In this document: piece by piece, positions 697-57,567 of the stretch
Layout of the letters: each line of letters opens with the position of its first letter
How positions within the stretch are numbered: position 1 is the first letter of the stretch
Source: Candidatus Eiseniibacteriota bacterium
GTDB lineage: Bacteria; Patescibacteriota; Microgenomatia; Levybacterales; UBA12049
Direction of reading: 5' to 3'
Length of the DNA: 58,299 bases
Assembly (NCBI GenBank): GCA_035631115.1
Contig: DASQJJ010000051.1
Coordinates: forward strand, 1 to 58,299
The notes under the pieces: generated by a model
The model's database searches: none
Told to the model about the DNA's origin: nothing
The model's input: only the letters and a program-made list of their open reading frames with translations
Position numbers and translations under genes: made by a program

Positions 697-807
697 AACT
701 AAGAGCTGATAGCTGACAACTGGTAGCTGTTCTATCGTAGCAAAAAGAGAGGCTCCATACAAACAAATTTGTAAAAAACCTCTCTTGCCTATTCAAGAAA
801 GCAATTA

Positions 808-3791: not shown

Positions 3792-3868
3792 AGGAATACT
3801 ATAGAATATCCAATGTCAAATATCCAATATCCAATGTTAAATAATTATTTGCCGTGTATAATGTGAAT

Positions 3869-11190: not shown

Positions 11191-11619
11191 TTATTGTACC
11201 TTTCCAAACTTATCTGTATATTTGTGCTCTTCTGCTGCAAAGACGTGAAGTCTCTTGAGCATTGTAGCCCTTAATTTATTCTGTGGCAACATACCTCGCA
11301 CCGCATGCATAATAATTTCTCCCGGACGACGGGCAGACAAATCTTTAAAAGCTTCTTCCTTTAATCCACTGGTATATCCAGAATTATGGCGATACATTTT
11401 GTCTGTAGATTTTTTACCTGTTATTGCAACTTGGGATGCATTCACAACCACAACATAATCTCCACAGTCTAAATTTCTAACAAAATAAGGCTTTTTCTTT
11501 CCCATGAGCATATGGGCAATTTCTACAGCTACTCGTCCCAATACTTTTCCTTTGACATCTACTAATTGCCATTCTCTTTTAATGTCTTTTGCTTTTGTTG
11601 CTGGTGTTGCTGTATTCAT
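11191..11619 (-). CDS. rplM: 50S ribosomal protein L13
   Basis: REWQLVDVKGKVLGRVAVEIAHMLMGKKKP. Confidence 0.95.
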   Translation of the reverse strand: MNTATPATKAKDIKREWQLVDVKGKVLGRVAVEIAHMLMGKKKPYFVRNLDCGDYVVVVNASQVAITGKKSTDKMYRHNSGYTSGLKEEAFKDLSARRPGEIIMHAVRGMLPQNKLRATMLKRLHVFAAEEHKYTDKFGKVQ

Positions 11620-11665
11620 AAATTAGTTATTAGCTGCTAGCTACTAGTTGCTAGTTATATTTGAA
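11620..11665. repeat. heptad TAG array spacer
   Basis: TAG at 11624, 11631, 11638, 11645 and 11652, exact period 7. Confidence 0.8.
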
Positions 11666-12157
11666 CTACTTACTAGATGCTGACGCACGTCCTTTCTTTG
11701 TTTTCACTTCTTTTTTTACTTCTACTTTCTTAACAGGTTTCTTTGCAACTACTGCTTTAGCTACCTTAACTTTTTTTTCTGCTACTGGCGCAACTGCTGC
11801 ACTTGTTTTGTCTACCCATTCAATTATAGCCATTTTTGCATTGTCTCCAAATCGTTGTCCTACTTTTACAATTCTTGTGTATCCGCCTGGTCTATCTGCA
11901 AATCTTTTTGACAAGTCATTGATAACTTTCTTATATGCAACAACAGAAAGATATGGCTGCAGTAAAGATTCTGCATTTTCACCTTTTCTTTTTGCTTTTG
12001 TTACTAATTTTTCTACCTGACCTTTTATTGCTTTTGCCTTTTCCTCTGTTGTTTGGATTGACTCCTTTAGAACCAAATCAGTCATAAGCCCTTTTAACAG
12101 AGCTTTTCTTTCGTTTGCATCTCTTTTAAATTTTCTTCCAAATACTTGCTTTCTCAT
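11666..12157 (-). CDS. rplQ: 50S ribosomal protein L17 with K/A/V-rich C-terminal tail
   Basis: GRKFKRDANERKALLKGL...GGYTRIVKVGQRFGDNAKMAIIEWV. Confidence 0.9.
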   Translation of the reverse strand: MRKQVFGRKFKRDANERKALLKGLMTDLVLKESIQTTEEKAKAIKGQVEKLVTKAKRKGENAESLLQPYLSVVAYKKVINDLSKRFADRPGGYTRIVKVGQRFGDNAKMAIIEWVDKTSAAVAPVAEKKVKVAKAVVAKKPVKKVEVKKEVKTKKGRASASSK

Positions 12158-12244
12158 AATCTAAATAAAAAGAAAAGCGCCCACCCGCAACCCTATTTTC
12201 TATGCGAGCTGGTCGCTTCTACTGATTGGGTGATATTCCCAAAA

Positions 12245-13171
12245 CTATATATTGAGTGAAATACCTTTTTCACCTAATTTTTCTTCTATAATTGCAATGG
12301 ATTTTGCTCCCATATTTCTCATAGAAATAAGGTCTTTTCTAGGAGTACTGAGTAAATCTGCAATTGTTTCTACTCCACCATTTCGAAGACTATTGTAGAT
12401 TCGTGTTGGTAAATCTAATTCATCTACTGTTAATTTGAGTAAATCTTCAGAAATAGAGCCTGCTAAAGGAGATGCAGATTCTGACATTTCCCCTGCTGTT
12501 GGCTCGTATATTTGCTTGAAGTAATTAGATAACACTTTTGCAGACTCTTCTACTGCTTCTTTTGGAGTTACCGATCCATTTGTCCATACCTGTAAGACTA
12601 ACTTATCCATATTGGTCTTTCGTCCAACGCGGGTTGCTTCTACTGTATAGTTAACTCTTTTAACAGGAGTAAATACTGCATCTGTTAAGATAACACCGAC
12701 TTCTTCAGAAGATCTTTCTTCTGCTAAGGAATATCCATATCCTCTTTCGATAGTTATTTCCATTTCCAATTTTGCCTTTTCTCCAGAGAGAGTACCCAAG
12801 TAGTGGTCTTTATTTACAACCTCTACACCATCGGTAACTTCAATTTGTGCTGCAGTAATTTCTTTTGATCCTTTTACAGAAAGGGTAACTGTTGCACTGT
12901 CTCGTGAAGGTGCTAATGTAAAACTAACTCCCTTAAGATTGAGAAGAAAATCAACAACTGTTTCTTTAAGACCCAAAACTGTGGAAAATTTATGCTTAAC
13001 ACCGGAGATTCGAAGAGAGGTAACTGCTACGCCTGGAATAGATGAAAGAAGGATTCGTCGAAGTGCATGGCCTAATGTGTAGCCATAACCAGGCTCAAGA
13101 GGCTCCATGAAAAACTCTGCAAATGTTGCATCTGCTGTTGTTTCTTTAACTTTAAAATTAGGCTGCATCAT
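12245..13171 (-). CDS. rpoA: DNA-directed RNA polymerase subunit alpha
   Basis: GYGYTLGHALRRILLSSIPG, with C-terminal domain LDLPTRIYNSLRNGGVETIADL. Confidence 0.95.
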   Translation of the reverse strand: MMQPNFKVKETTADATFAEFFMEPLEPGYGYTLGHALRRILLSSIPGVAVTSLRISGVKHKFSTVLGLKETVVDFLLNLKGVSFTLAPSRDSATVTLSVKGSKEITAAQIEVTDGVEVVNKDHYLGTLSGEKAKLEMEITIERGYGYSLAEERSSEEVGVILTDAVFTPVKRVNYTVEATRVGRKTNMDKLVLQVWTNGSVTPKEAVEESAKVLSNYFKQIYEPTAGEMSESASPLAGSISEDLLKLTVDELDLPTRIYNSLRNGGVETIADLLSTPRKDLISMRNMGAKSIAIIEEKLGEKGISLNI

Positions 13172-13183
13172 AAACGTTTATGT

Positions 13184-13212
13184 ATTATACCAGCTATCAA
13201 GGCTGGTTTCAA
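13184..13212 (-). promoter_or_regulatory. candidate internal promoter TTGAAA-N17-TATAAT upstream of rpoA
   Basis: Read on the minus strand: TTGAAA (13212..13207), 17-nt spacer, TATAAT (13189..13184), 12 nt before ATG 13171. It could be a chance match in AT-rich DNA. Confidence 0.3.
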
Positions 13213-13224
13213 CAAGGAATATGA

Positions 13225-13839
13225 CTATCGTGAGTAGTACTCAATAATCATCTGAACATCAAAAGGTACCTCGATATCTTCCTTCTTAGGAAGCCGTACC
13301 ATCTTGCCTACTGTTGCTTTTTTCTCTAAAAATGGCAATAATGCCTTTTCTTCAGCTAGCAATTTTACTACATCTGGATTTTTTTGAATCTTTTCTCCCA
13401 AAGCAACAACATCACCCTCTTTTACTGTATACGATGGGATATTTAGCTTTTTTCCATTTACCAAGACGTGATTATGCGAGACAAACTGTCTTGCCATAAA
13501 TCGGGATTTTGCAAAACCCAATCGGTATACAATGTTATCAAGTCTTTGCTCAAGTCTGGCAACAATCTGCTCTGAGGTGTCACCCTTTGCTTTTTGCACA
13601 TCCCGCACTAAATTACTGAATTGCTTTTCCAAAACACCATACATATTCTTTGCTCGTTGTTTTTCTCGAAGCTGCTGGCCAAATTCAGATAATTTTCGAG
13701 CCCTTTTTGCCCCATGGACCCCAGGCTTCGCATTCAGTCTTTTTGCAAGATTTGCTGCCTGATTACCGTCTGTTTTGTCGATAAGGTTAATACCCTCTCG
13801 TCGTGCTAATTTATGTTTTGATTTTGTATATCGTGCCAT
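13225..13839 (-). CDS. rpsD: 30S ribosomal protein S4
   Basis: MARYTKSKHKLARREG...RLDNIVYRLGFAKSRFMARQFVSHNHVLVNGKK. Confidence 0.95.
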   Translation of the reverse strand: MARYTKSKHKLARREGINLIDKTDGNQAANLAKRLNAKPGVHGAKRARKLSEFGQQLREKQRAKNMYGVLEKQFSNLVRDVQKAKGDTSEQIVARLEQRLDNIVYRLGFAKSRFMARQFVSHNHVLVNGKKLNIPSYTVKEGDVVALGEKIQKNPDVVKLLAEEKALLPFLEKKATVGKMVRLPKKEDIEVPFDVQMIIEYYSR

Positions 13840-13921
13840 ATATTCCTTTCAGTCAAAATTAAAGATGAAAAATTAAATCTAAAAATATTTTTGAGATCTC
13901 ATTTTTGATTTCTAATTTATT

Positions 13922-14359
13922 TTACACCCTCCTCTTTTTCTTTGCCCGTGGACCATTATGAGGGACAGGCGTTAAGTCTGCAATAAGAAGAATAGAAAGT
14001 CCTGCAGCTTTAATTGCCCGCAGGGCACTATCTCTTCCCGATCCTGGACCTTTCACAAAAACCTCAACTGCTTTTAAGCCCTTCTCTACTGCTTTTTTAC
14101 ATGCATCTTCTACAGCGAGTCCTGCTGCATATGGGGTTGATTTTCGTGCACCCTTGAATCCTTTTGCTCCACTAGAACTCCATGCGACTGTTTCTCCTTT
14201 GTCATTGGTTACTGTGACAAGGGTGTTGTTGAAGGTTGCAGAAATAAATATCTTTCCATTCTGACTTACTGCTGCTGTAGATTTTTTCTTGCTAGAAGAA
14301 CCCGTTTTTACGGTCTTTTTAACAACTACTGACTTTGCTTTTGTTTTTGCTTCTGCCAT
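13922..14359 (-). CDS. rpsK: 30S ribosomal protein S11
   Basis: [39 protein letters not shown]. Confidence 0.95.
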
Positions 14360-14360
14360 A

Positions 14361-14780
14361 TTATTTCTTTGCTGGAGCTGCCTTTGCCGCCGCGCCTGCT
14401 TCCATCTTGGTTGCTAATTCTTTCTTAATAGCACCAATGGTCATTCTCTTACCTCTTTTTGTACGTGCATTACTTCGTGTTCGTTGTCCTCTTCCTGGAA
14501 GTCCTTTTGTATGACGAGATCCTTTATACGAACCAATTTCCTTTAATCTTTTAATATTTCCTGTTACTTCTGCCCGCAAATCTCCCTCTAATTTGAATTC
14601 CTCTAAAATCTTCGCAATGGTCTTTTGCTCTTCATCGGTAAGATCTTTCATTCGTTTTGCGCGATCTACCTTTGCTCTCTCCAAGATAGCAACAACATTA
14701 CTTCTTCCAATTCCATAGAGATAGGTAAGAGAAATATCTACTCTTTTGTCGTCTGGTAAGGTAATACCTGCAACTCTCAT
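14361..14780 (-). CDS. rpsM: 30S ribosomal protein S13
   Basis: [27 protein letters not shown]. Confidence 0.95.
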
Positions 14781-14845
14781 ATTTTTAGTTATCAGTTTTC
14801 AGTTTTCAACTTTCAGTTAACTGAGAGCTGACAACTGGGCGCTGA
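14781..14845. repeat. bipartite heptad stop-codon array spacer
   Basis: Minus-strand TAA/TGA at 14785, 14792, 14799, 14806 and 14813. Plus-strand TGA at 14822, 14829 and 14843, with TGG at 14836. All are on a 7-nt period. Confidence 0.8.
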
Positions 14846-14959
14846 TTAGCCCTGTCTTTGCTTATGTCGTGGGTTCTCACACACTACACGAAGCACTCCT
14901 TTTCTTTTAATCACTTTGCACTTTGCGCATCTTGGTTTTACACTTGCTTGTACTTTCAT
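14846..14959 (-). CDS. rpmJ: 50S ribosomal protein L36
   Basis: Own translation gives [37 protein letters not shown] (37 aa). It is below the ORF-track length cut-off. Confidence 0.9.
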
Positions 14960-14960
14960 A

Positions 14961-15179
14961 TTATCTTCCTCTATATACTATTCTACCTTTTGTTTTGTCA
15001 TACTCGGTCATTTCGACTTTTACCTTATCTCCTGGTAAAATGCGGACAAAATTAAGGCGCATCTTCCCTGCTAAATGACACAAAACGACACTTCCGTCAG
15101 CGAGCTCAACCCTGAATAACGTATTAGGAAGGGATTCTTTGACGATCCCTTCCACCTCATAGGACCCTTGATGTGCCAT
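14961..15179 (-). CDS. infA: translation initiation factor IF-1
   Basis: [34 protein letters not shown]...RIVYR. Confidence 0.95.
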
Positions 15180-15224
15180 TTACTCTGAGTATTATATCAG
15201 GTTGAGACTGAATCGGCAATAGCC

Positions 15225-15992
15225 TCAAGGAGTAAGAATACGATGCCCTGTAGCTGTAACAGCCACTGTACGCTCAAAAAGTCCCGACAAACTCCCATCT
15301 CTACTCTTAATCGTCCAGTCGTCCGTACCTGCAAAGGCAATTTCCTTCTTGCCCATATTGTAGATAACCTCGACCGCAATAACCATACCCTCAACCAGAA
15401 GAGGGGTCTTTTCGAGCCTACGAGATAAATATCCAGGTACAGGTGGATCTTCATGAAGTTTTTTCCCAACACCGTGTCCAATAAGCTCTCTCGTAACCCC
15501 ATATCCTCCATCTTTTTCAACAATTTGCTGGATTACCTGAGAAATATGCCCTATTCTATTGCCTGGTTTTACCTGTGCAAGTGCCTCTTCGAGGGCTTTC
15601 TTGCCTGTTTTGAGGAATTGCACTACCTCTTTTGATGCTTTCTCCTCTCCTCCTACAATAACCGTTTCTGCCATGTCTGTATGAAATCCATCAAAAAGCA
15701 CCCCACAGTCAATGCCAAAAACATCTCCACTACGCAACGCATAGGAAGTTGGAATTCCATGGACCACAACGTCGTTGGTAGAGGCACAAATAGTATGGTG
15801 ATACCCTCGTACTGCCTTAAATCCTGGCTTGCCCCCCATGGAAAGAATATGCTTTTCTGCCAACGCATCTATTTCCAGCTCCGTTACGCCTGGCTTAACG
15901 TGCTTAAGCACTTCCCACATAGTTGAGGACAAGATTTTTCCTCCTTTTTTCATTGCTTCTAGTTCTTGGGGTGTTTTTATATGAATCTTCAT
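15225..15992 (-). CDS. map: type I methionine aminopeptidase
   Basis: GIDCGVLFDGFHTDMAETV...GHGVGKKLHEDP. ATG 15992 overlaps the cmk stop (ATGA). Confidence 0.9.
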   Translation of the reverse strand: MKIHIKTPQELEAMKKGGKILSSTMWEVLKHVKPGVTELEIDALAEKHILSMGGKPGFKAVRGYHHTICASTNDVVVHGIPTSYALRSGDVFGIDCGVLFDGFHTDMAETVIVGGEEKASKEVVQFLKTGKKALEEALAQVKPGNRIGHISQVIQQIVEKDGGYGVTRELIGHGVGKKLHEDPPVPGYLSRRLEKTPLLVEGMVIAVEVIYNMGKKEIAFAGTDDWTIKSRDGSLSGLFERTVAVTATGHRILTP

Positions 15993-16675
15993 TGCACTTT
16001 CTCCCATTCTTGCATAACCTCTGCAACTGTTTCTTCTTCTGTCATATCAGAATTATCCAGCACTACATATCCATATTCTTTGGGATTAGATACTAAAGGA
16101 GACGCTGATCGGTGAATATCTTTATAGTCCCTATCATTCGTATCGGCAAGAATTTGATCAAATGTAATTGTATGATTATTTTTACCCCCCATTTGCTCAT
16201 AGCGCCTTTTTGCCCGTACTTCGGGTCGTGCAGTTAAAAAAAGCTTGAGCTTTGCATCTGGAAAAATTTTTGTCGCAGCATCACGTGCATCTATAAGAAC
16301 AACAAATCCCTTTTCAATCATTTTAAGCCCAATTTCTCTCTGTCTTTTCACCATCTCTGCTCTCACCTCGGCAATGGCAGCAACTTTTGGAACAAGCTGA
16401 TTTACATCATGTTTCCTAATGCGTTCAGTTACATCAACACCATTAAGACTAACGCTGGTATTATCGAGGTCAAACCGAGTTTGGGAAAGCGCTTCTATTA
16501 CTTCTTGCTTATTTTGAGTGTTTACATTGTGCTCAAGGCAGTAAAGAGCTAAGCATCGATACATCGCGCCTGTATTAAGATGGAATCCATTGAGTCTTTT
16601 ACTAAGAAGTGAGGCTATTGTCCCTTTTCCTGCTGCAACGGGACCATCAATTGCGATTGCATGAGTTTCTTGCAT
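15989..16675 (-). CDS. cmk: cytidylate kinase
   Basis: IAIDGPVAAGKGTIASLLSKRL. It sits between adk and map. Confidence 0.9.
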   Translation of the reverse strand: MQETHAIAIDGPVAAGKGTIASLLSKRLNGFHLNTGAMYRCLALYCLEHNVNTQNKQEVIEALSQTRFDLDNTSVSLNGVDVTERIRKHDVNQLVPKVAAIAEVRAEMVKRQREIGLKMIEKGFVVLIDARDAATKIFPDAKLKLFLTARPEVRAKRRYEQMGGKNNHTITFDQILADTNDRDYKDIHRSASPLVSNPKEYGYVVLDNSDMTEEETVAEVMQEWEKVQ

Positions 16676-16677
16676 AC

Positions 16678-17232
16678 CTACTCACTTTTCTTTACCCTTT
16701 CAAGGTAGGTAAGAATCTCTTTTGAGATTTCTTCAATAGATTTTTCTCCATCAACCTCAAAAAGCATACCGTTTTTTCGATAATAATCCAAAACAGGCTC
16801 TGTAAATTTATGAAAGAGCTCGATACGCTTTCGAATGGCTAAAAGCGTCTCGTCTTGTCTATCTCCAGAATCTCTAAAAGAAAGTCTCCATAATGCCTCT
16901 CTGTCAGAAACATGCAAATAAATAACAGCGTCTACTCCATTCTTAAATTGCTTTGCTTGACCAACGGTACGGGGAAATCCGTCCATAATATATCCTTTTT
17001 CATATTCTGGGCGCGATAAGTATTCACTCACCACTTCCAATGTCTTTTCATCGGGAATAAGAAATCCTGCATTCATAACTTCTTTAATGTAGCGACCCAT
17101 TGGGGTTTTTTCCATTGCAATGGTGCGAAAAATGTGCCCTGTCGAAAGATAGGGAAGGCCTAATTTTTTGGAGAGGATATTCCCTTGCGTTGATTTTCCT
17201 GCTCCTTGAATACCAATTAAAATAAGTTTCAT
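16678..17232 (-). CDS. adk: adenylate kinase (short, no zinc lid)
   Basis: [32 protein letters not shown]. Confidence 0.9.
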
Positions 17233-18515
17233 TGTACAAACCTTTCGTAATTACGCATAACAAGCTGCGCCTCTATTGCCTTAACAGTCTCTAATACTAC
17301 ACTAACAACGATTAAAATACCAGTGCCTCCCAGTAAAATTGTCTGCACGCTGGTGAAAGACCTGGCAATGGTTGGGAAAATAGCAATAATACCCAAAAAA
17401 AGAGCACCTGCAAGAGTAATTCTTGTTAAGACATAATTAAGGTATTTGGAAGTAGGCGAGCCTGGGCGAATGCCTGGAATAAATCCACCATATTTCTGAA
17501 TATCTTCTGCGATTTTCGTTGGATTAAAGATAACTGCTGTATAAAAATAGGTAAATCCAACAACGAGAAGAAAATAAGACACATTATAAATCCAGCCTGC
17601 TGGATTAAACCAAACAGTAAGATTCTGAGCAACCTGAGAAAGTGCAGGATTTTTTGTTGCAGTAAGAAAATTACCAATAAGAGAAGGCACCAACACAAGT
17701 GATACAGCAAAGATAATTGGAATAACCCCTGCCTGATTTAGCCTGAGAGGCAAATGAGTTGATTGTCCTCCATAGACTTTATTTCCTCGTACCTGCTTTG
17801 CATAAAAAATAGGGATTTGTCTGGTTGCCTCGTTGGTAATAACAATTGCCGCAATAACCATAAGCCCGAGCGCAGCAAAAAGAAGAATACTTGTTAGATT
17901 TTCGGCACTTGTTGTAGTAATAGTCTGAGTAAAGGCAATGGGGAGTCTGCCAATAATTCCCGCAAAAATAAGAAGAGAAATACCATTACCAACCCCTTTT
18001 TCTGTAATCAACTCTCCAAACCATACCAAAAGCATTGTCCCGGCAGTCATGGTTACGACAAGTCCTGCAATTTGGATAGGACTAAATCCTCCAACAATTC
18101 CCTGACTTCTTAAAAGCAGAAACATACCAAATGCTTGCAGAGCTGCCAATGGAATTGTAAGAAGTCGTGTGTATTGATTGATTTTTTGCCTTCCCGATTC
18201 TCCTTCTTTTGAAAGCGCCTCGAGACTTGGGAAAACCATAGTAAGAAGTTGGAGAATAATTGACGCGTTAATGTATGGATTAAGACCCAACGCCATAATA
18301 GAGAAATTGGCAAGGGTACCTCCAGAAAAAATATCTAAAAGTCCTAAGAATTGATTTTGAGAAAAAAGGCTTTTAAGAGCTGCAACATTAACGCCACTTA
18401 CCGGAATATGAGCAAAAAATCTAAAAACTACAAAAACAACAGCTGTGAAGAGGATTTTTCCACGGATATCTGGTGTTTGAAAGCTCTTTCTAAAAAGTGA
18501 AAGAATATTATTCAT
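17229..18515 (-). CDS. secY: preprotein translocase subunit SecY
   Basis: 428-aa polytopic membrane protein in the canonical position between rplO and adk. Contains [16 protein letters not shown]. Confidence 0.95.
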
Positions 18516-18518
18516 CTA

Positions 18519-18959
18519 CTATAGAGATTCTACTGTGCCCCCTGCTTTCTCTATTTTTCCTTTTGCTTGGTTGGAAACAGGAATTTTGACGGTAAGGGCA
18601 ATCGTCAATTCCCCATCTCCTAACAACTTTACCCCATTTTTCTTAACTTCTCTTTCTTTGACAACCTTTTGCTTTACCAACGAAGCAACATCAACAACTG
18701 CTCCTTTAGAAAAAGAGGAAAGATTGTCTAGATTAATAATAACAGGATTTTTGGTAAAAGGATTATTTCTATTTTTTCCGCGGAGAAATGGCATTCTTTT
18801 AATAAGTGGGAGTGCTCCTCCTTCAAAGGATAATGCAATGGTTCTTCGTGCTTTTTGACCTTTTGTACCACGACCTGACGTCTTACTTCGTCCAGATCCA
18901 TGACCAAGGCCAAGTCTTTTCTTAGGTCTTTTAACAATTTTTATGAGTGTATTAAGCAT
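18519..18959 (-). CDS. rplO: 50S ribosomal protein L15
   Basis: GHGSGRSKTSGRGTKGQKAR. Its start overlaps the rpsE end, leaving no room for rpmD. Confidence 0.9.
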   Translation of the reverse strand: MLNTLIKIVKRPKKRLGLGHGSGRSKTSGRGTKGQKARRTIALSFEGGALPLIKRMPFLRGKNRNNPFTKNPVIINLDNLSSFSKGAVVDVASLVKQKVVKEREVKKNGVKLLGDGELTIALTVKIPVSNQAKGKIEKAGGTVESL

Positions 18960-19467
18960 TTTTTTCTCCTTTTTTTAATTCCATTTTTCTATACATATCT
19001 CCAACTTGTTTTAATGCCTCTAATGCTGCATACACATTACTTGCCTTATTCCCACTTCCCAGTACTTTAGATGAAATATTATGTATTCCTGCTGCACTCA
19101 CAACACTTCTCACAGATCCACCTGCAATAATACCAGAGCCTTGTGGAGCTGGCTTAAGCATAACTCGAGCAGCACCCAATTTAACAGTAACATTAAAAGG
19201 AATTGTTCCATTAACCGTTGGGACTGCAATCATATGCTTTTTTGCTGCAGAAACAGCTTTTCGAATTGCTGCTGCAACGTCTGCTGCTTTTCCATGTCCT
19301 GCTCCAACATTTCCCTTTTTATCTCCAACAACAACCAATGCTGCAAAACTTACTTTATTTCCACCTTGTGTCTTCTTGGAAATTCTATTAATAAGCACAA
19401 CATCCTCAACCATATCTGATTGTGGTCTGTTGAATTGATTTTGATTTTGATTCTTATTGAATGCCAT
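18952..19467 (-). CDS. rpsE: 30S ribosomal protein S5
   Basis: RISKKTQGGNKVSFAALVVVGDKKGNVGAGHGKA. Confidence 0.95.
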   Translation of the reverse strand: MAFNKNQNQNQFNRPQSDMVEDVVLINRISKKTQGGNKVSFAALVVVGDKKGNVGAGHGKAADVAAAIRKAVSAAKKHMIAVPTVNGTIPFNVTVKLGAARVMLKPAPQGSGIIAGGSVRSVVSAAGIHNISSKVLGSGNKASNVYAALEALKQVGDMYRKMELKKGEKNA

Positions 19468-19808
19468 TAGAATTGTAATCCTCCTTCTCTTGCTCCTTCT
19501 GCCAGTGATTTTACTCGACCATGATATCGATACATTCCTCTATCAAATATTGCTTTTTTTACTTTTGCGTCTAATGCTTTCTTTGCGAGTAAAAGTCCTA
19601 ATGCCTTTGCTCTCTCTGTTTTGGTTGCTTTTTCTTTACCTAATTCTTTTTCACTGACACCAAGAATTGTCACTGCTTTATCATCATTAATAAGCTGCGC
19701 ATACATATGACTACTGCTTCTATGAATAGAAAGTCGTGGCATTGCTGCAGTTCCATGCATTTTTGCTCGTACTCTTTTTTTAATTCTTTGTGTTGCTGTA
19801 CTTTTCAT
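19467..19808 (-). CDS. rplR: 50S ribosomal protein L18
   Basis: RLSIHRSSSHMYAQLINDD...RGMYRYHGRVKSLAEGAREGGLQF. Confidence 0.9.
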   Translation of the reverse strand: MKSTATQRIKKRVRAKMHGTAAMPRLSIHRSSSHMYAQLINDDKAVTILGVSEKELGKEKATKTERAKALGLLLAKKALDAKVKKAIFDRGMYRYHGRVKSLAEGAREGGLQF

Positions 19809-19809
19809 A

Positions 19810-20361
19810 TTATTTTGCTCCTACTGCCTTTGCTGCTTTTCCGGCTTTCTTTCGAATAACTTCTCCAACATACTTGATACCTTTTCCCTTGTAAGGCTCT
19901 GGTGGTCGTACCGCACGTACTCGAGATGCAATAAGCCCAACAACTGCCTTGTCTATACCACTTATGGTAATAACATTATCTGCAACAGTAAATGTTGTAC
20001 CAGCTGGCGCACTAATTTTTACTGGATGAGAAAATCCAACAGAAAGCGTTAAATCCGATCCTGCTGCTTGTGCTCTGTATCCAACTCCAGTTAATTCTAA
20101 TTTTTTCTCTATTCCCGTTGAAACCCCTGTTACCATATTTGCAAGAAGCGCACGAGTTAAGCCAAAAACGTCTCTTGTTGTCTCCCGTGTTGCTAATTCT
20201 TGACCTACTTGCAATTTGTCATTTTCAACAACAACAGTAATTCCTGCTGGAATAGGGAATGTCAGTGTCCCTTTAGGGCCAGTCACTGTTGCAACATTAT
20301 TCACAACTGTTACTGTTACTCCTTCTTTTAATGTAATTGGTAATTTTCCTATTTTACTCAT
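19810..20361 (-). CDS. rplF: 50S ribosomal protein L6
   Basis: MSKIGKLPITLKEGVTV...LTGVGYRAQ. Confidence 0.95.
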   Translation of the reverse strand: MSKIGKLPITLKEGVTVTVVNNVATVTGPKGTLTFPIPAGITVVVENDKLQVGQELATRETTRDVFGLTRALLANMVTGVSTGIEKKLELTGVGYRAQAAGSDLTLSVGFSHPVKISAPAGTTFTVADNVITISGIDKAVVGLIASRVRAVRPPEPYKGKGIKYVGEVIRKKAGKAAKAVGAK

Positions 20362-20362
20362 G

Positions 20363-20752
20363 CTACCAAATCTTAAAGAGGACTTCTCCTCCTACACCTT
20401 TCTTGACAGCTTCTCGTCCTGTCATAACACCTTGATTTGTTGATACAACTGTTGTGCCAAGACCTCGTCCAACAAGTCCAACAGTATCTGTTGCGCCTGC
20501 ATAGACTCGAAGAGATGGCTTTGAGATAACAGCAACATCGGTAAATGCCGCCAAACGCTTTTCAAAGACAATTGTTGCAACGAGAGATTTCTTCCCATCT
20601 TTACTTTCTTCCTTAATACTTCCCAACATATGCTGCTTTACCAAAACCTGTCCTATTGCCTTATTTAATTTTGAGTATGGCAACACAACTTCTCTTCGGC
20701 GAGCGAGTGCTGCGTTTTTTAACCGTATAATAAAATCTGCTACTAAATACAT
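20363..20752 (-). CDS. rpsH: 30S ribosomal protein S8
   Basis: DFIIRLKNAALARRREV...GGEVLFKIW. Confidence 0.95.
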   Translation of the reverse strand: MYLVADFIIRLKNAALARRREVVLPYSKLNKAIGQVLVKQHMLGSIKEESKDGKKSLVATIVFEKRLAAFTDVAVISKPSLRVYAGATDTVGLVGRGLGTTVVSTNQGVMTGREAVKKGVGGEVLFKIW

Positions 20753-20826
20753 AATAATCAGTTACTAGTTTCTAGTTACTAGCTTCTAGTTCATTAAGAA
20801 CTGAAAGCTGACATCTGAAAGCTATT
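20753..20826. repeat. eight-unit heptad stop-codon array spacer
   Basis: TAG (within CTAG) at 20766, 20773, 20780 and 20787. TAA at 20795. TGA at 20802, 20809 and 20816. Confidence 0.8.
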
Positions 20827-21012
20827 TTACCAGGTTGCCTTTAGAACTCCTGGTAATTCTCCTTTCTGTGCTAATTCTCTAAAACACATTCTGCAAAGTC
20901 CAAATCTTCTCATGTACGAGCGCGCTCTTCCACAGATTTGGCATCTGTTTCTGTCTCTAGATGTAAATTTTTGTTTGTGTAAAAATTTTACGACACTTGA
21001 TTTTTTTGCCAT
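20827..21012 (-). CDS. rpsN: 30S ribosomal protein S14, zinc-binding type Z
   Basis: CQICGRARSYMRRFGLCRMCFRELAQKGELPGVLKATW. Confidence 0.9.
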   Translation of the reverse strand: MAKKSSVVKFLHKQKFTSRDRNRCQICGRARSYMRRFGLCRMCFRELAQKGELPGVLKATW

Positions 21013-21018
21013 ATATAA

Positions 21019-21558
21019 TTACTTTTGAAAAGGCATTCCTAATGCCCGCAAAAGCGCTACTCCTTCCTCTTTTGTCTTACCTGATGTTGTAATTGTTACT
21101 TGAAGTCCTTGGACTTTATCAAATTTACCTGGGTCAACTTCTGGAAAAACAGTAAATTCAGAAATTCCAATTGTGTAATTTCCTCTGGTATCAAAGCTAT
21201 CTTTTCCAACTCCTCGAAAATCTTTTAATCGAGGCATGACAACATCAACCAATTTTCCGTAGAAATCATACATGCGATTTCCCCGCATGGTTACGACCAG
21301 GCCAATTTTATCACCTTCTCTAAGCTTAAAGCTAGAGATAGATTTTTTGGCACTGGTTACTTTTGGTTTTTGTCCAGTAATCAATTCCATAACTTTTGTT
21401 GCAACTTCTATATTTTTCTTGTCTGCAACTGCATTTCTTACACCCATATTAATAACAATTTTTTTCAATTTTGGTACTGCCATGATATTTTTAATTTTTA
21501 ATTCTTCTTGTAATTTCTTTACTACCTCTTTGAGATATTTTTCTTGTATATATGTCAT
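21019..21558 (-). CDS. rplE: 50S ribosomal protein L5
   Basis: Canonical position. Contains PKLKKIVINMGV...FRGVGKDSFDTRGNYTIGI. ATG 21558 lies 1 nt after the rplX stop. Confidence 0.9.
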   Translation of the reverse strand: MTYIQEKYLKEVVKKLQEELKIKNIMAVPKLKKIVINMGVRNAVADKKNIEVATKVMELITGQKPKVTSAKKSISSFKLREGDKIGLVVTMRGNRMYDFYGKLVDVVMPRLKDFRGVGKDSFDTRGNYTIGISEFTVFPEVDPGKFDKVQGLQVTITTSGKTKEEGVALLRALGMPFQK

Positions 21559-35633: not shown

Positions 35634-35692
35634 TCTAAGAGTGAAGGGTTAAGGGTTGAAACCTATGATGTATCGTAGGTAGTTTTAATTTA

Positions 35693-40204: not shown

Positions 40205-40274
40205 AAAAGTAAAAAATTCTAAGCTCCAAAAACCAAATCCCAAACAAATCACAAGTACCAAAATTCAAAATGTT

Positions 40275-40298
40275 TAGGGTTTAGAAATTAGGATTTAG
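40275..40298. repeat. heptad TAG array upstream of fusA
   Basis: TAG at 40275, 40282, 40289 and 40296. Confidence 0.7.
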
Positions 40299-40344
40299 GA
40301 TTTACAACTTTAGTATACCATAAATTTTGAAGAGAGAAAAGAAG

Positions 40345-40686
40345 CTAGAATTGTCTTCCTCTTCGTTCATGAAGAGAACCACCTGTATCACGACTTGCTG
40401 TTGCCAACGTTAGTGCACCTGTGTTGTGTGTTACCTCTGGTTGGAGTGATGAATGTCGACGACGGGCACGCTCTGCTTGCTCTTCTAATTGCTTGCGAAG
40501 TAGTTCCTCAAGATTAACAGCTGATGCTTGCGACGTTGCATACTCTGGAGCTTGAGCAACATACTGACTTGCGGGAGCGTTTTTAACAAATGGTGAACCA
40601 CGAAGCGGAAGATCTCCTGGGCCGCCTCCATGACCAATCCGCACATCATGTCTTGATCCCATTTCTCGTTGCACTGCTACTGTCAT
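40345..40686 (-). CDS. hypothetical protein (113 aa) with REMGS N-terminal motif
   Basis: ORF track. It lies 6 nt after the stop of a 51-aa ORF that shares REMGS and EL..KQ.E....E..RRR.S motifs. Confidence 0.5.
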   Translation of the reverse strand: MTVAVQREMGSRHDVRIGHGGGPGDLPLRGSPFVKNAPASQYVAQAPEYATSQASAVNLEELLRKQLEEQAERARRRHSSLQPEVTHNTGALTLATASRDTGGSLHERRGRQF

Positions 40687-57446: not shown

Positions 57447-57469
57447 ATTCAAGATTTAAGATTTAAGAA

Positions 57470-57567
57470 GGGGTGGCGCGAGTGGGGGACCCACGAAACC
57501 TTTCTGCAGTGAATGAAATGAACGAAGCAGGTTTTGGGGGTGACGAGTCGACAGGACCCCGACAATA
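57470..57567 (+). promoter_or_regulatory. GC-rich structured leader candidate upstream of the phosphorylase gene
   Basis: Two similar ~28-nt GC boxes (GGGTGGCGCGAGTGGGGGACCCACGAAA and GGGTGACGAGTCGACAGGACCCCGACAA) flank a central hairpin AAACC..TGC..GCAGGTTT. Confidence 0.35.

Follow-up and report, generated by a model that had tools for sequence, protein, structure and literature searches.

The oldest heptanucleotide repeats known from bacteria are said to be the STRR sequences of cyanobacteria, reportedly described by Mazel and colleagues in 1990 and by Vioque in 1997 as tandem heptanucleotides that occupy non-coding DNA and fall into few unit families per genome; two of these units are STRR1 (CCCCAGT) and STRR3 (CAACAGT). 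Here we analyse an array of the same period that takes up nearly all of the 65-nt spacer between rpmJ and rpsM, the genes for ribosomal proteins (r-proteins) L36 and S13, in a 58,299-nt stretch of DNA (contig DASQJJ010000051.1 of assembly GCA_035631115.1; hereafter the window) from a bacterium of the Candidate Phyla Radiation (CPR, Patescibacteria). The TCAGTTN units of this spacer contain the CAGT core that is also present in STRR1 and STRR3, but the STRR sequences come from another phylum, are mostly direct and are longer, and the likeness is one of period and core only.

Palindromes of the REP/BIME, ERIC and Neisseria Correia/NEMIS types are short and lineage-specific, are co-transcribed in operons and form RNA hairpins, some of which are RNase III substrates or mRNA stabilisers. 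In these families the consensus is conserved, the ends are defined and the sequence is not composed of 7-nt units in tandem, whereas the junctions of the window contain no common consensus element. The leader of the Escherichia coli alpha operon, a pseudoknot bound by S4, occupies the same position as our spacer, just upstream of rpsM; unlike that leader, the element described here is a simple repeat hairpin rather than a pseudoknot, and it is absent from the nearest relatives.

Among the long simple sequence repeats (SSRs) of bacteria, heptamers form the most abundant class, which has been ascribed to polymerase slippage, according to the summary that Rehm et al. give of earlier work (Mrazek 2007, as summarised in PMC4692102). 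The closest described relatives of our spacer are the direct TAACTGA repeats found in marine Beggiatoaceae and in some Cyanobacteria and Bacteroidetes, which mostly run forward, lie a few nucleotides from start codons that lack a ribosome-binding site (RBS), including those of r-protein operons and fusA, and in forward orientation stop all reading frames; S1, Csp and CsrA have been put forward as candidate binders (MacGregor 2015, PMC4679880). The rpsM-proximal arm of our spacer belongs to the same unit family, runs forward, lacks a canonical RBS and places a stop in every frame, and forward arrays end a few nucleotides before RBS-less starts at three junctions of the window (rpsM at 4 nt, rpsH at 5 nt and rplM at 3 nt). 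Placement at r-protein genes and fusA is common to both systems, the repeats lying upstream of S4, L3, S1 and fusA in BOGUAY and upstream of S13, S8, L13 and fusA in the window, and in both the reverse orientation translates into a VSYQ-type peptide (array 697-745 of the window). Unlike the TAACTGA repeats, which comprise at least two exact copies in tandem, the focal arm holds one exact copy and matches the family only in degenerate form (NARCTGA). It is furthermore accompanied by an inverted arm, which yields a hairpin; in BOGUAY a single indirect repeat stands against 169 direct sets. The host, a member of the CPR, lies outside the list of organisms surveyed by MacGregor, and many other units are found in the same genome.

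Inverted pairs have been described in Xanthomonas, where 186 arrays of GGGAATC include 70-75 convergent pairs per genome that are able to form stem-loops, and GGGGA(C/T)T heptamers are repeated in Nostoc (Rehm et al. 2015, PMC4692102). Our spacer resembles the Xanthomonas pairs in being intergenic, in having about four units per array, in its closely spaced convergent arrangement on opposite strands (its two arms are reverse complements in unit type) with the capacity for a stem-loop or cruciform, and in varying in length and sequence among close relatives. It differs in that the Xanthomonas and Nostoc units are G-rich and G-quadruplex-capable, whereas the focal units are AT-rich and their arms contain no G3 runs, and in its stop-to-start placement within an operon, which was not described for those genomes. 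A preprint on Nostoc reports heptamers near start codons with modest effects in reporter assays. The only case with an experimentally established mechanism is the hmw leader of Haemophilus influenzae, in which (ATCTTTC)n forms a hairpin in the 5' untranslated region and cleavage by RNase III raises expression (Rapun-Araiz et al. 2025, PMC12721329). There, too, a heptamer SSR forms an arm of a long hairpin ahead of a start codon, but the right arm of the hmw hairpin is non-repetitive and G-rich, the repeat is phase-variable and it belongs to the promoter and leader of a virulence gene; in our spacer both arms are heptadic, and copy number is the same in a second assembly of the organism.

A literature search of incomplete coverage did not turn up any account of heptamer repeats or of repeat hairpins in Patescibacteria/CPR. 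A preliminary description of the window knew of no described function for such spacers; spacers of this kind have, as the above precedents show, been described before (PMC4679880, PMC4692102, PMC12721329). Judged by its sequence, the focal spacer consists of two TAACTGA-type heptamer arrays in inverted orientation and falls into one class with the STRR, TAACTGA and GGGAATC repeats. The reading that we favour, with confidence only slightly above even, is that it was gained recently at the DNA level and is tolerated within the operon as a self-folding hairpin, with an rpsM start that is devoid of a Shine-Dalgarno (SD) motif and partly masked as a by-product.

Periodicity, predicted fold and probable recent gain of the rpmJ-rpsM spacer

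The spacer (Table 1) has the consensus unit NARCTGA/TCAGYTN. Its identity at a lag of 7 nt is 0.64, against 0.27 ± 0.06 with a maximum of 0.48 in 5000 dinucleotide-preserving shuffles (z 6.4; 0/5000 reach 0.64), and a value of at least 0.64 is attained by only 9 of the 58,234 segments of 65 nt in the window, which fall into three regions, all intergenic. Tandem Repeats Finder (TRF) delineated 5.3 copies of period 7 at 14782-14818 and a second array at 14819-14845, that is, the three or more head-to-tail copies beyond chance that characterise heptanucleotide SSRs. The period-7 array noted in the preliminary description is thus real. On the sense strand the 5' arm is open, its TGA codons lying on the plus strand, and the 3' arm has TGA or TAA every 7 nt on the sense strand and is followed by AAAT (4 nt) and the rpsM ATG, with no SD motif present. 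The only other assembly that encodes exactly the RpsM of the window (locus L079, 99.98% identical over 11 kb) is a separate one and has an identical spacer, and the element is therefore no assembly artefact.

With its flanks, the mRNA strand of the spacer is predicted to fold at -24.3 kcal/mol (z -4.67; 0/200 shuffles as stable), which bears out the earlier impression of loosely complementary, possibly folding halves. The predicted hairpin begins 9 nt past the rpmJ stop and ends 6 nt ahead of the rpsM ATG, so that rpsM positions -7 to -15 are paired and -6 to +6 unpaired (P >= 0.88); alternative pairing registers exist because the arms are repeats. When the bare spacer is folded, the plus-strand transcript (-25.1 kcal/mol) is more stable than the mRNA strand (-21.2 kcal/mol).

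Several conventional identities were considered and set aside. As a rho-independent terminator the hairpin lacks a U-tract, being followed on the mRNA strand by AAAAAU, and a terminator scan reported none at 14781-14845. A promoter scan of the spacer found just a weak TTGAAA-17-AAAAAT in the 3' arm, its -10 element abutting the ATG, with site counts at shuffle level. Rfam searches, which covered the whole window at gathering thresholds and the interval 11400-21200 at E up to 5, matched no family in the spacer, the single match being a tRNA-Pro elsewhere; the S4-binding leader of the alpha operon (Alpha_RBS) was rejected for want of a match even at E up to 5.

Comparison with relatives points to a recent gain. 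The RpsM relatives found in the genome collection belong to Candidatus Levyibacteriota and other Microgenomates/Patescibacteria, the best being L001 (88% identity) and L002 (84%). The L36-S13 junction measures 2-7 nt in most relatives and 2 and 3 nt in these two closest ones, whereas five farther loci (L003, L010, L011, L020 and L027) have heptadic spacers of 43-112 nt made of other units (CTAGCAA, GGTTTAG, AAAGTGA/TCACTTT, TCAGTTN/AACTGAN) and a sixth (L032) has a period-8 hairpin. The preliminary description had made its proposal depend on periodicity in orthologous spacers, and the answer is divided: the two nearest relatives have none in their 2-3 nt, and the six farther ones have independent repeat spacers, five heptadic and one of period 8. 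The S14-S8 and S11-S4 junctions behave likewise, with 6-19 nt in L001/L002 against 74 and 82 nt in the window, so that the three expanded r-protein junctions of the window for which a comparison is possible (L36-S13, S14-S8 and S11-S4) are all tight in these two relatives. Throughout the matrix of operon junctions, tight spacing (-4 to about 10 nt) is the rule and junctions expanded to 30-300 nt occur sporadically; of the 160 operon spacers of 30 nt or more, 51 have a lag-7 identity of 0.42 or higher. In this matrix S14, S8, S13, S11, S4 and L17 were labelled by Pfam scans and RpoA, Adk, Cmk, Map and IF1 by precomputed Pfam hits, and the labels of L5, L6, L18, S5, L15 and SecY were inferred from gene order and size. 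Since the junctions are tight in the closest relatives and carry repeat spacers in six farther ones, the heptad elements are, by this comparison of sequences, recent in the lineage of the window and recurrently gained across the clade.

The favoured scenario would run as follows. A recent gain in the Levyibacteriota lineage would have lengthened an operon junction that is otherwise 2-7 nt long, likely through unit-wise slippage combined with inverted duplication or through copying from a paralogous array. The spacer would be transcribed within the r-protein operon into the predicted 19-bp 'zipper' hairpin, which would fold away as a self-contained structure, with positions -7 to -56 paired and the start codon and positions -1 to -6 single-stranded. 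The insert would replace any SD motif with an A-rich leader, which would make rpsM initiation SD-independent, and initiation would probably still depend on the opening of the stem by ribosomes or helicases that come from rpmJ.

Stop codons in the heptads

The preliminary description had also suggested that the stop codons recurring with the heptads may serve as a translation insulator. Its coordinates are each correct: TAA/TGA/TGA/TGA/TGA on the minus strand at plus coordinates 14785, 14792, 14799, 14806 and 14813, and on the plus strand TGA at 14822, 14829 and 14843 with TGG at 14836. All six frames of the spacer are indeed closed; the closure is not entirely the work of the array, however, because the phased TGA codons of the plus strand cover two frames and the third is closed by the central TAA at 14818. 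Closure as such is a matter of arithmetic, in that any repeated 7-nt unit containing a stop closes all three frames, 7 not being divisible by 3. The surplus of stops is marginal, 12 against 8.4 ± 2.1 in composition-matched shuffles, 6.3% of which reach 12, and six-frame closure occurs in 20% of these shuffles and in 5.5% of the non-heptad intergenic segments of 65 nt.

The insulator idea holds that the heptads are selected to end the translation of any ribosome, in any frame and on either strand, between tightly packed genes, and it can draw on the six-frame closure of the focal spacer, which few non-heptad intergenic segments attain. A permutation of the columns of heptad arrays, which preserves composition and repeat structure, speaks against it: among the 84 heptad arrays in co-directional spacers, three frames are closed on at least one strand in 65%, compared with 65 ± 4% of the permuted arrays, and on the sense strand in 35%, compared with 45 ± 5%. 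There is a strong excess of period 7 over shuffled controls (see below) but none of the stop phasing that the preliminary description had expected to accompany it. Some arrays, such as AATATCC at 3805-3835, are free of stops on both strands, the relatives function with 2-3 nt at the same junction, and on the plus strand of the focal spacer the array alone closes just two frames. An orientation bias of the arms is the remaining point in favour of the idea. In the co-directional heptad spacers of L001-L073 and the window, the stop-adjacent arm leaves the sense strand open and is rich in antisense-strand stops in 15 cases versus 4, and the start-adjacent arm, which tends to bear sense-strand stops, shows the opposite tendency, 12 versus 6 (Fisher p = 0.008, on a small sample of 56 arms); the bias holds for A-rich and T-rich first arms alike. 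Weighing these points, we give selection for stop codons hardly any credence: the stops in every frame come with an AT-rich 7-nt unit as a by-product and are not a selected insulator.

Heptad spacers across the clade

The clade set comprised the window and 78 related CPR loci, 1.32 Mb in total, with 9.3% of the DNA outside open reading frames (ORFs). TRF detected 138 period-7 arrays, 110 of them in non-ORF DNA, whereas in the spacers period 6 is represented by 5 arrays, period 8 by 13 and period 10 by 9; shuffled spacers gave zero period-7 arrays by the same program. The units are diverse and AT-rich across the clade. The repeat class and the standing of 7 as the commonest tandem period of clade spacers agree with the earlier suggestion of a slippage-generated microsatellite; the two assemblies of this organism show no copy-number difference that would point to active slippage.

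Heptad arrays of co-directional spacers abut the upstream stop or the downstream start. A fold with z < -2 is predicted for 61% of the heptad spacers and 31% of the other spacers, and in the 33 heptad spacers that fold in this way a single hairpin takes up 84% of the spacer at the median, with a median stem of 28 bp that starts 5 nt past the stop and ends 7 nt before the start. The focal hairpin, with 9 nt, 19 bp and 6 nt, respectively, fits this stop-hairpin-start pattern. A T-rich tail is present in just 11 of the 33, and we reject the notion that heptad hairpins are generally terminators. The extreme case is L032 (JBGSIU010000064.1, a metagenome-assembled genome of Patescibacteria), in which nearly every r-protein junction between 700 and 11400 carries a hairpin of 66-154 nt composed of short units in tandem, mostly of period 7 and in some cases of period 8 or 10. 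The bases of these hairpins are 0-9 nt past the stop and 3-11 nt ahead of the following start, and at four consecutive junctions of this locus the inserts measure 74-79 nt.

Such regularity could also mean that the hairpins are selected as intercistronic RNA structures, either as an RNase III site or stabiliser that splits the spc-type from the alpha-type transcript, or as a gate that couples rpsM to rpmJ translation, the base of the stem being unzipped by the ribosome that terminates on rpmJ. An RNase III substrate would offer about two helical turns of duplex; the predicted focal stem has 19 bp, broken by two 3-nt internal loops. The strength of the focal fold and the pairing of rpsM positions -7 to -15 would suit such a role, as would the consistent geometry of the 33 spacers, the hairpin-rich operon of L032, the hairpin retained at the RpoA-L17 junction of a Levyibacteria subclade together with its T7 run (see below) and the RNase III cleavage that raises expression from the H. 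influenzae (ATCTTTC)n hairpin (PMC12721329). However, the focal hairpin is absent from the two nearest relatives, and a sense-strand advantage is missing: among heptad spacers the sense strand is the more stable in 28 and the less stable in 25, a test that is unable to separate structure at the RNA level from structure at the DNA level, and in the focal spacer it is the antisense strand that is more stable. Arrays are also similarly frequent per junction whether the genes are co-directional (84/1636), divergent (11/190) or convergent (7/226). A palindrome inserted into a junction of 5-10 nt predicts the same geometry, a ribosome sitting at the rpmJ stop would get no further than the first bases of a stem that begins 9 nt away, and no Rfam family matches the spacer. 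The lack of strand bias and the similar frequencies by junction type suggest instead an orientation-blind process acting on DNA, and we regard selection for an RNA hairpin as unlikely.

Several observations weigh against our favoured reading of a recent, tolerated gain or limit its base. The related loci have crude gene calls, taken as longest ORFs, and the genome of the window is represented by 58 kb only. The two assemblies of the organism do not differ in heptad copy number, and relatives differ from the window by the presence or absence of spacers and not by unit number; the arrays 697-745 and 14820-14843 can be aligned with or without a shift of one heptad. The same unit family occupies four junctions of the window, with 21/24 bases identical between two loci, a recurrence that would fit copying, gene conversion or a unit-specific factor better than independent slippage in situ. 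The orientation bias of the arms (p = 0.008) hints at some selection on orientation. Finally, an orthologous heptad hairpin of about 95-117 nt has been kept at the RpoA-L17 junction (around 12,370-12,610) in some eight species of Levyibacteria whose RpsM identity is 62-72% (L005, L012, L018, L019, L020, L022, L023 and L024). Its 5' side reads ATCTCAAATCT... and its 3' side ...TTTGAGAT, and in several species it is followed by TTTTTTT directly ahead of the rplQ start, which makes an attenuator or terminator possible; at the same junction, the window (12158-12244), L001, L002 and L014 have a GC-rich hairpin with a T-run instead. Its retention across species indicates that at least some heptad hairpins are long-lived and possibly functional.

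Other arrays of the window and their unit families

About eight spacers of the 58-kb window have period 7 (Table 1), in keeping with the non-coding location and several arrays per genome that are typical of heptanucleotide SSRs. Their units are of different types, TAACTGA-like, TAAAYCC, AATATCC and AGATTTA. The 13-mer AGCTGACAACTGG, which the preliminary description had placed both in the focal spacer and near the beginning of the window, is present exactly at 711-723 and 14826-14838, and the ungapped match extends to 21/24 bases.

Table 1. Position and composition of the focal spacer, its flanking genes and the other heptad arrays of the window
Feature	Position	Strand	Description
rpmJ-rpsM intergenic spacer	14781..14845	-	65 nt, nearly all of it two inverted heptamer arrays
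rpmJ (ribosomal protein L36)	14846..14959	-	upstream cistron; PF00444, E 5e-19
rpsM (ribosomal protein S13)	14361..14780	-	downstream cistron; PF00416
5' arm	14820..14845	-	mRNA strand TCAGCGC CCAGTTG TCAGCTC TCAGTTA; four reverse-orientation TAACTGA-type (TCAGTTA-like) units after the rpmJ stop UAA
3' arm	14785..14819	-	mRNA strand TAACTGA AAGTTGA AAACTGA AAACTGA TAACTAA; five forward-orientation units
Predicted hairpin	14787..14836	-	predicted fold, 50 nt, 19 bp; helices of 9+5+5 bp with 3-nt internal loops between them
Array of the focal unit family	697..745	-	reverse orientation, reaching the ATG (696); 21/24 bases as in 14820-14843
S14-S8 spacer	20753..20826	-	bipartite; lag-7 identity 0.60; ends 5 nt before the rpsH ATG
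L17-L13 spacer	11620..11665	-	forward TAACTAG CAACTAG TAGCTAG CAGCTAA TAACTAA; ends 3 nt before the rplM ATG
S11-S4 spacer	13840..13921	-	arrays of period 7/14 around a central AAAAATATTTTT palindrome; lag-7 identity 0.47, lag-14 identity 0.51
fusA leader	40262..40344	-	extended -10-like TGGTATACT, then about five TAAAYCC-like units; lag-7 identity 0.54; no SD motif
Divergent spacer between recX-like and peptidase S51 genes	3792..3853	+	AATATCC-type heptads; lag-7 identity 0.58; unit stop-free on both strands
Weaker period-7 spacers	35634-35660 and 57447-57470		

The S14-S8 spacer repeats the bipartite design of the focal one, with TCAGATG TCAGCTT TCAGTTC in its 5' arm and GAACTAG AAGCTAG TAACTAG AAACTAG TAACTGA in its 3' arm, and the S11-S4 spacer keeps an AAGGA SD motif. 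The array at 697-745 precedes a gene for a four-helix-bundle protein of the 23S-rRNA-IVS/bAvd-like type (PF05635), and a terminator-like hairpin lies upstream in the same spacer. These heptads are open in frame, and the longest ORF (325-762) runs through them for 22 extra codons (...LPVVSYQLLV-M...); the true start of the gene is probably the ATG at 696, an N-terminal extension through the array being possible. The units of the fusA leader read TAAATCC TAAATCC TAATTTC TAAACCC TAAACAT, and their reverse complement, GGRTTTA, resembles the TTTAGGG type of plant telomeres. The ORF upstream of fusA (40345-40686) encodes 113 aa without a Pfam match, and fusA is thus not preceded by rpsG here.

A few further features of the r-protein gene string are worth recording. 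Directly after rpsJ (S10), the segment 29081-29159 holds three units of period 8 (TTCAGAAA) followed by a GC-rich hairpin (ACCCGCC ACC AGGCGGT) and T6, a terminator-like arrangement. The interval between rpsJ and rplC contains a 208-aa ORF of unassigned identity and a histidine-phosphatase gene, and the L3 protein of the window is unusually long (346 aa). Near-consensus sigma-70-type promoters with a TG-extended -10 element lie on the minus strand at 13184-13212 (TTGAAA-17-TATAAT, between S4 and RpoA) and 15191-15219 (TTGCCG-17-TATAAT, between Map and IF1), which suggests internal promoters for rpoA and infA within the long gene string.

Bacillus CspB binds heptanucleotide sites, and the heptads could be read as a binding array for a protein that covers about 7 nt of single-stranded RNA or DNA per subunit, of the cold-shock-domain (CSD) or S1-type oligonucleotide-binding (OB) fold, with the forward (UAACUGA)n arm recruiting ribosomes to, or regulating, an SD-less start, along the lines of MacGregor's proposal for Beggiatoaceae. 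The forward arms that end 3-5 nt before the ATG of rpsM, rpsH and rplM would be well placed for this purpose, and SD-like 4-mers follow just one heptad arm in 40, compared with a share of 37% at tight junctions. Four junctions of the window have a unit family in common, the related CAGYTNN units extend across phyla (see below), and S1, Csp and CsrA were already candidates for Beggiatoaceae (PMC4679880). Yet the units vary widely between the spacers of one genome and between genomes, the same family stands reversed directly before another ATG (697-745), and half of each bipartite element would be a non-binding complement. No candidate binder was seen among the small or unknown ORFs of the window, where the only match to CSD, S1 or KH domains is ribosomal protein S3. 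We therefore consider a binding array quite improbable.

The expansion of four r-protein junctions of the window, three of them comparable with the nearest relatives and tight there, might alternatively reflect a lineage-specific burst of a miniature mobile palindrome, similar to MITE (miniature inverted-repeat transposable element), Correia or REP elements, that entered tight junctions and whose heptad arms are incidental. The 21/24 bases common to two loci and the inserts of near-uniform length at four consecutive L032 junctions would be compatible with such an origin. Conserved termini and target-site duplications were not seen, however, unit families and periods change from junction to junction within one genome, the arms are not exact unit-by-unit mirror images, and the 58 kb examined contain no transposase or RAYT-like gene, all of which makes a mobile palindrome very improbable.

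The unit family itself reaches far beyond the CPR. A scan of metagenomes with an 18-nt stretch of the focal arm, CCAGTTGTCAGCTNTCAG, retrieved at least 119 contigs with a G+C content of 0.25-0.70, mostly with the match inside CAGYTNN heptad arrays and at least 12 with an inverted partner; the arrays come from many organisms that are unrelated. These contigs (L080-L198, e.g., L087, L096, L103, L152 and L186), which include some from human gut and from peat and soil, carry CAGTTGN/CAGCTNN units, often with an inverted CAACTGN arm, and in L087 and L103 the array begins 6-8 nt past the upstream co-directional gene. This distribution suggests that the CAGYTNN heptads form a widespread, cross-phylum unit family, with a CAGT core in common with STRR1/STRR3 and TAACTGA.

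A bolder interpretation, for which we have little confidence to offer, is that the 'zipper' hairpins, which extend from about 5 nt past a stop to about 7 nt before a start and have a start-proximal arm rich in sense-strand stops, would constitute a functional module of some Patescibacteria that sets the coupling or processing of SD-less r-protein cistrons; in that case, a conserved factor that reads heptads, or a mechanism dedicated to generating them, would lie behind the cross-phylum CAGYTNN/NARCTGA family in place of plain slippage. Whatever their cause, no long simple repeats of bacteria are more over-represented than tandem heptamers, which have no accepted function or origin, and the window extends them to the genome-reduced bacteria of the CPR, namely Levyibacteriota and other Microgenomates. 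The insulator claim ends in a negative result, the stops in every frame being accounted for by arithmetic and AT-richness. The CPR form of the repeats is stereotyped, with inverted arrays that are predicted to fold into a hairpin reaching from the stop of one r-protein gene to the SD-less start of the next and that appear to have been gained repeatedly at the same junctions. Tiny genomes with overlapping or near-abutting genes may thus provide a clean background against which the cost and benefit of such repeats, as selfish DNA or as an expression module, can be assessed.

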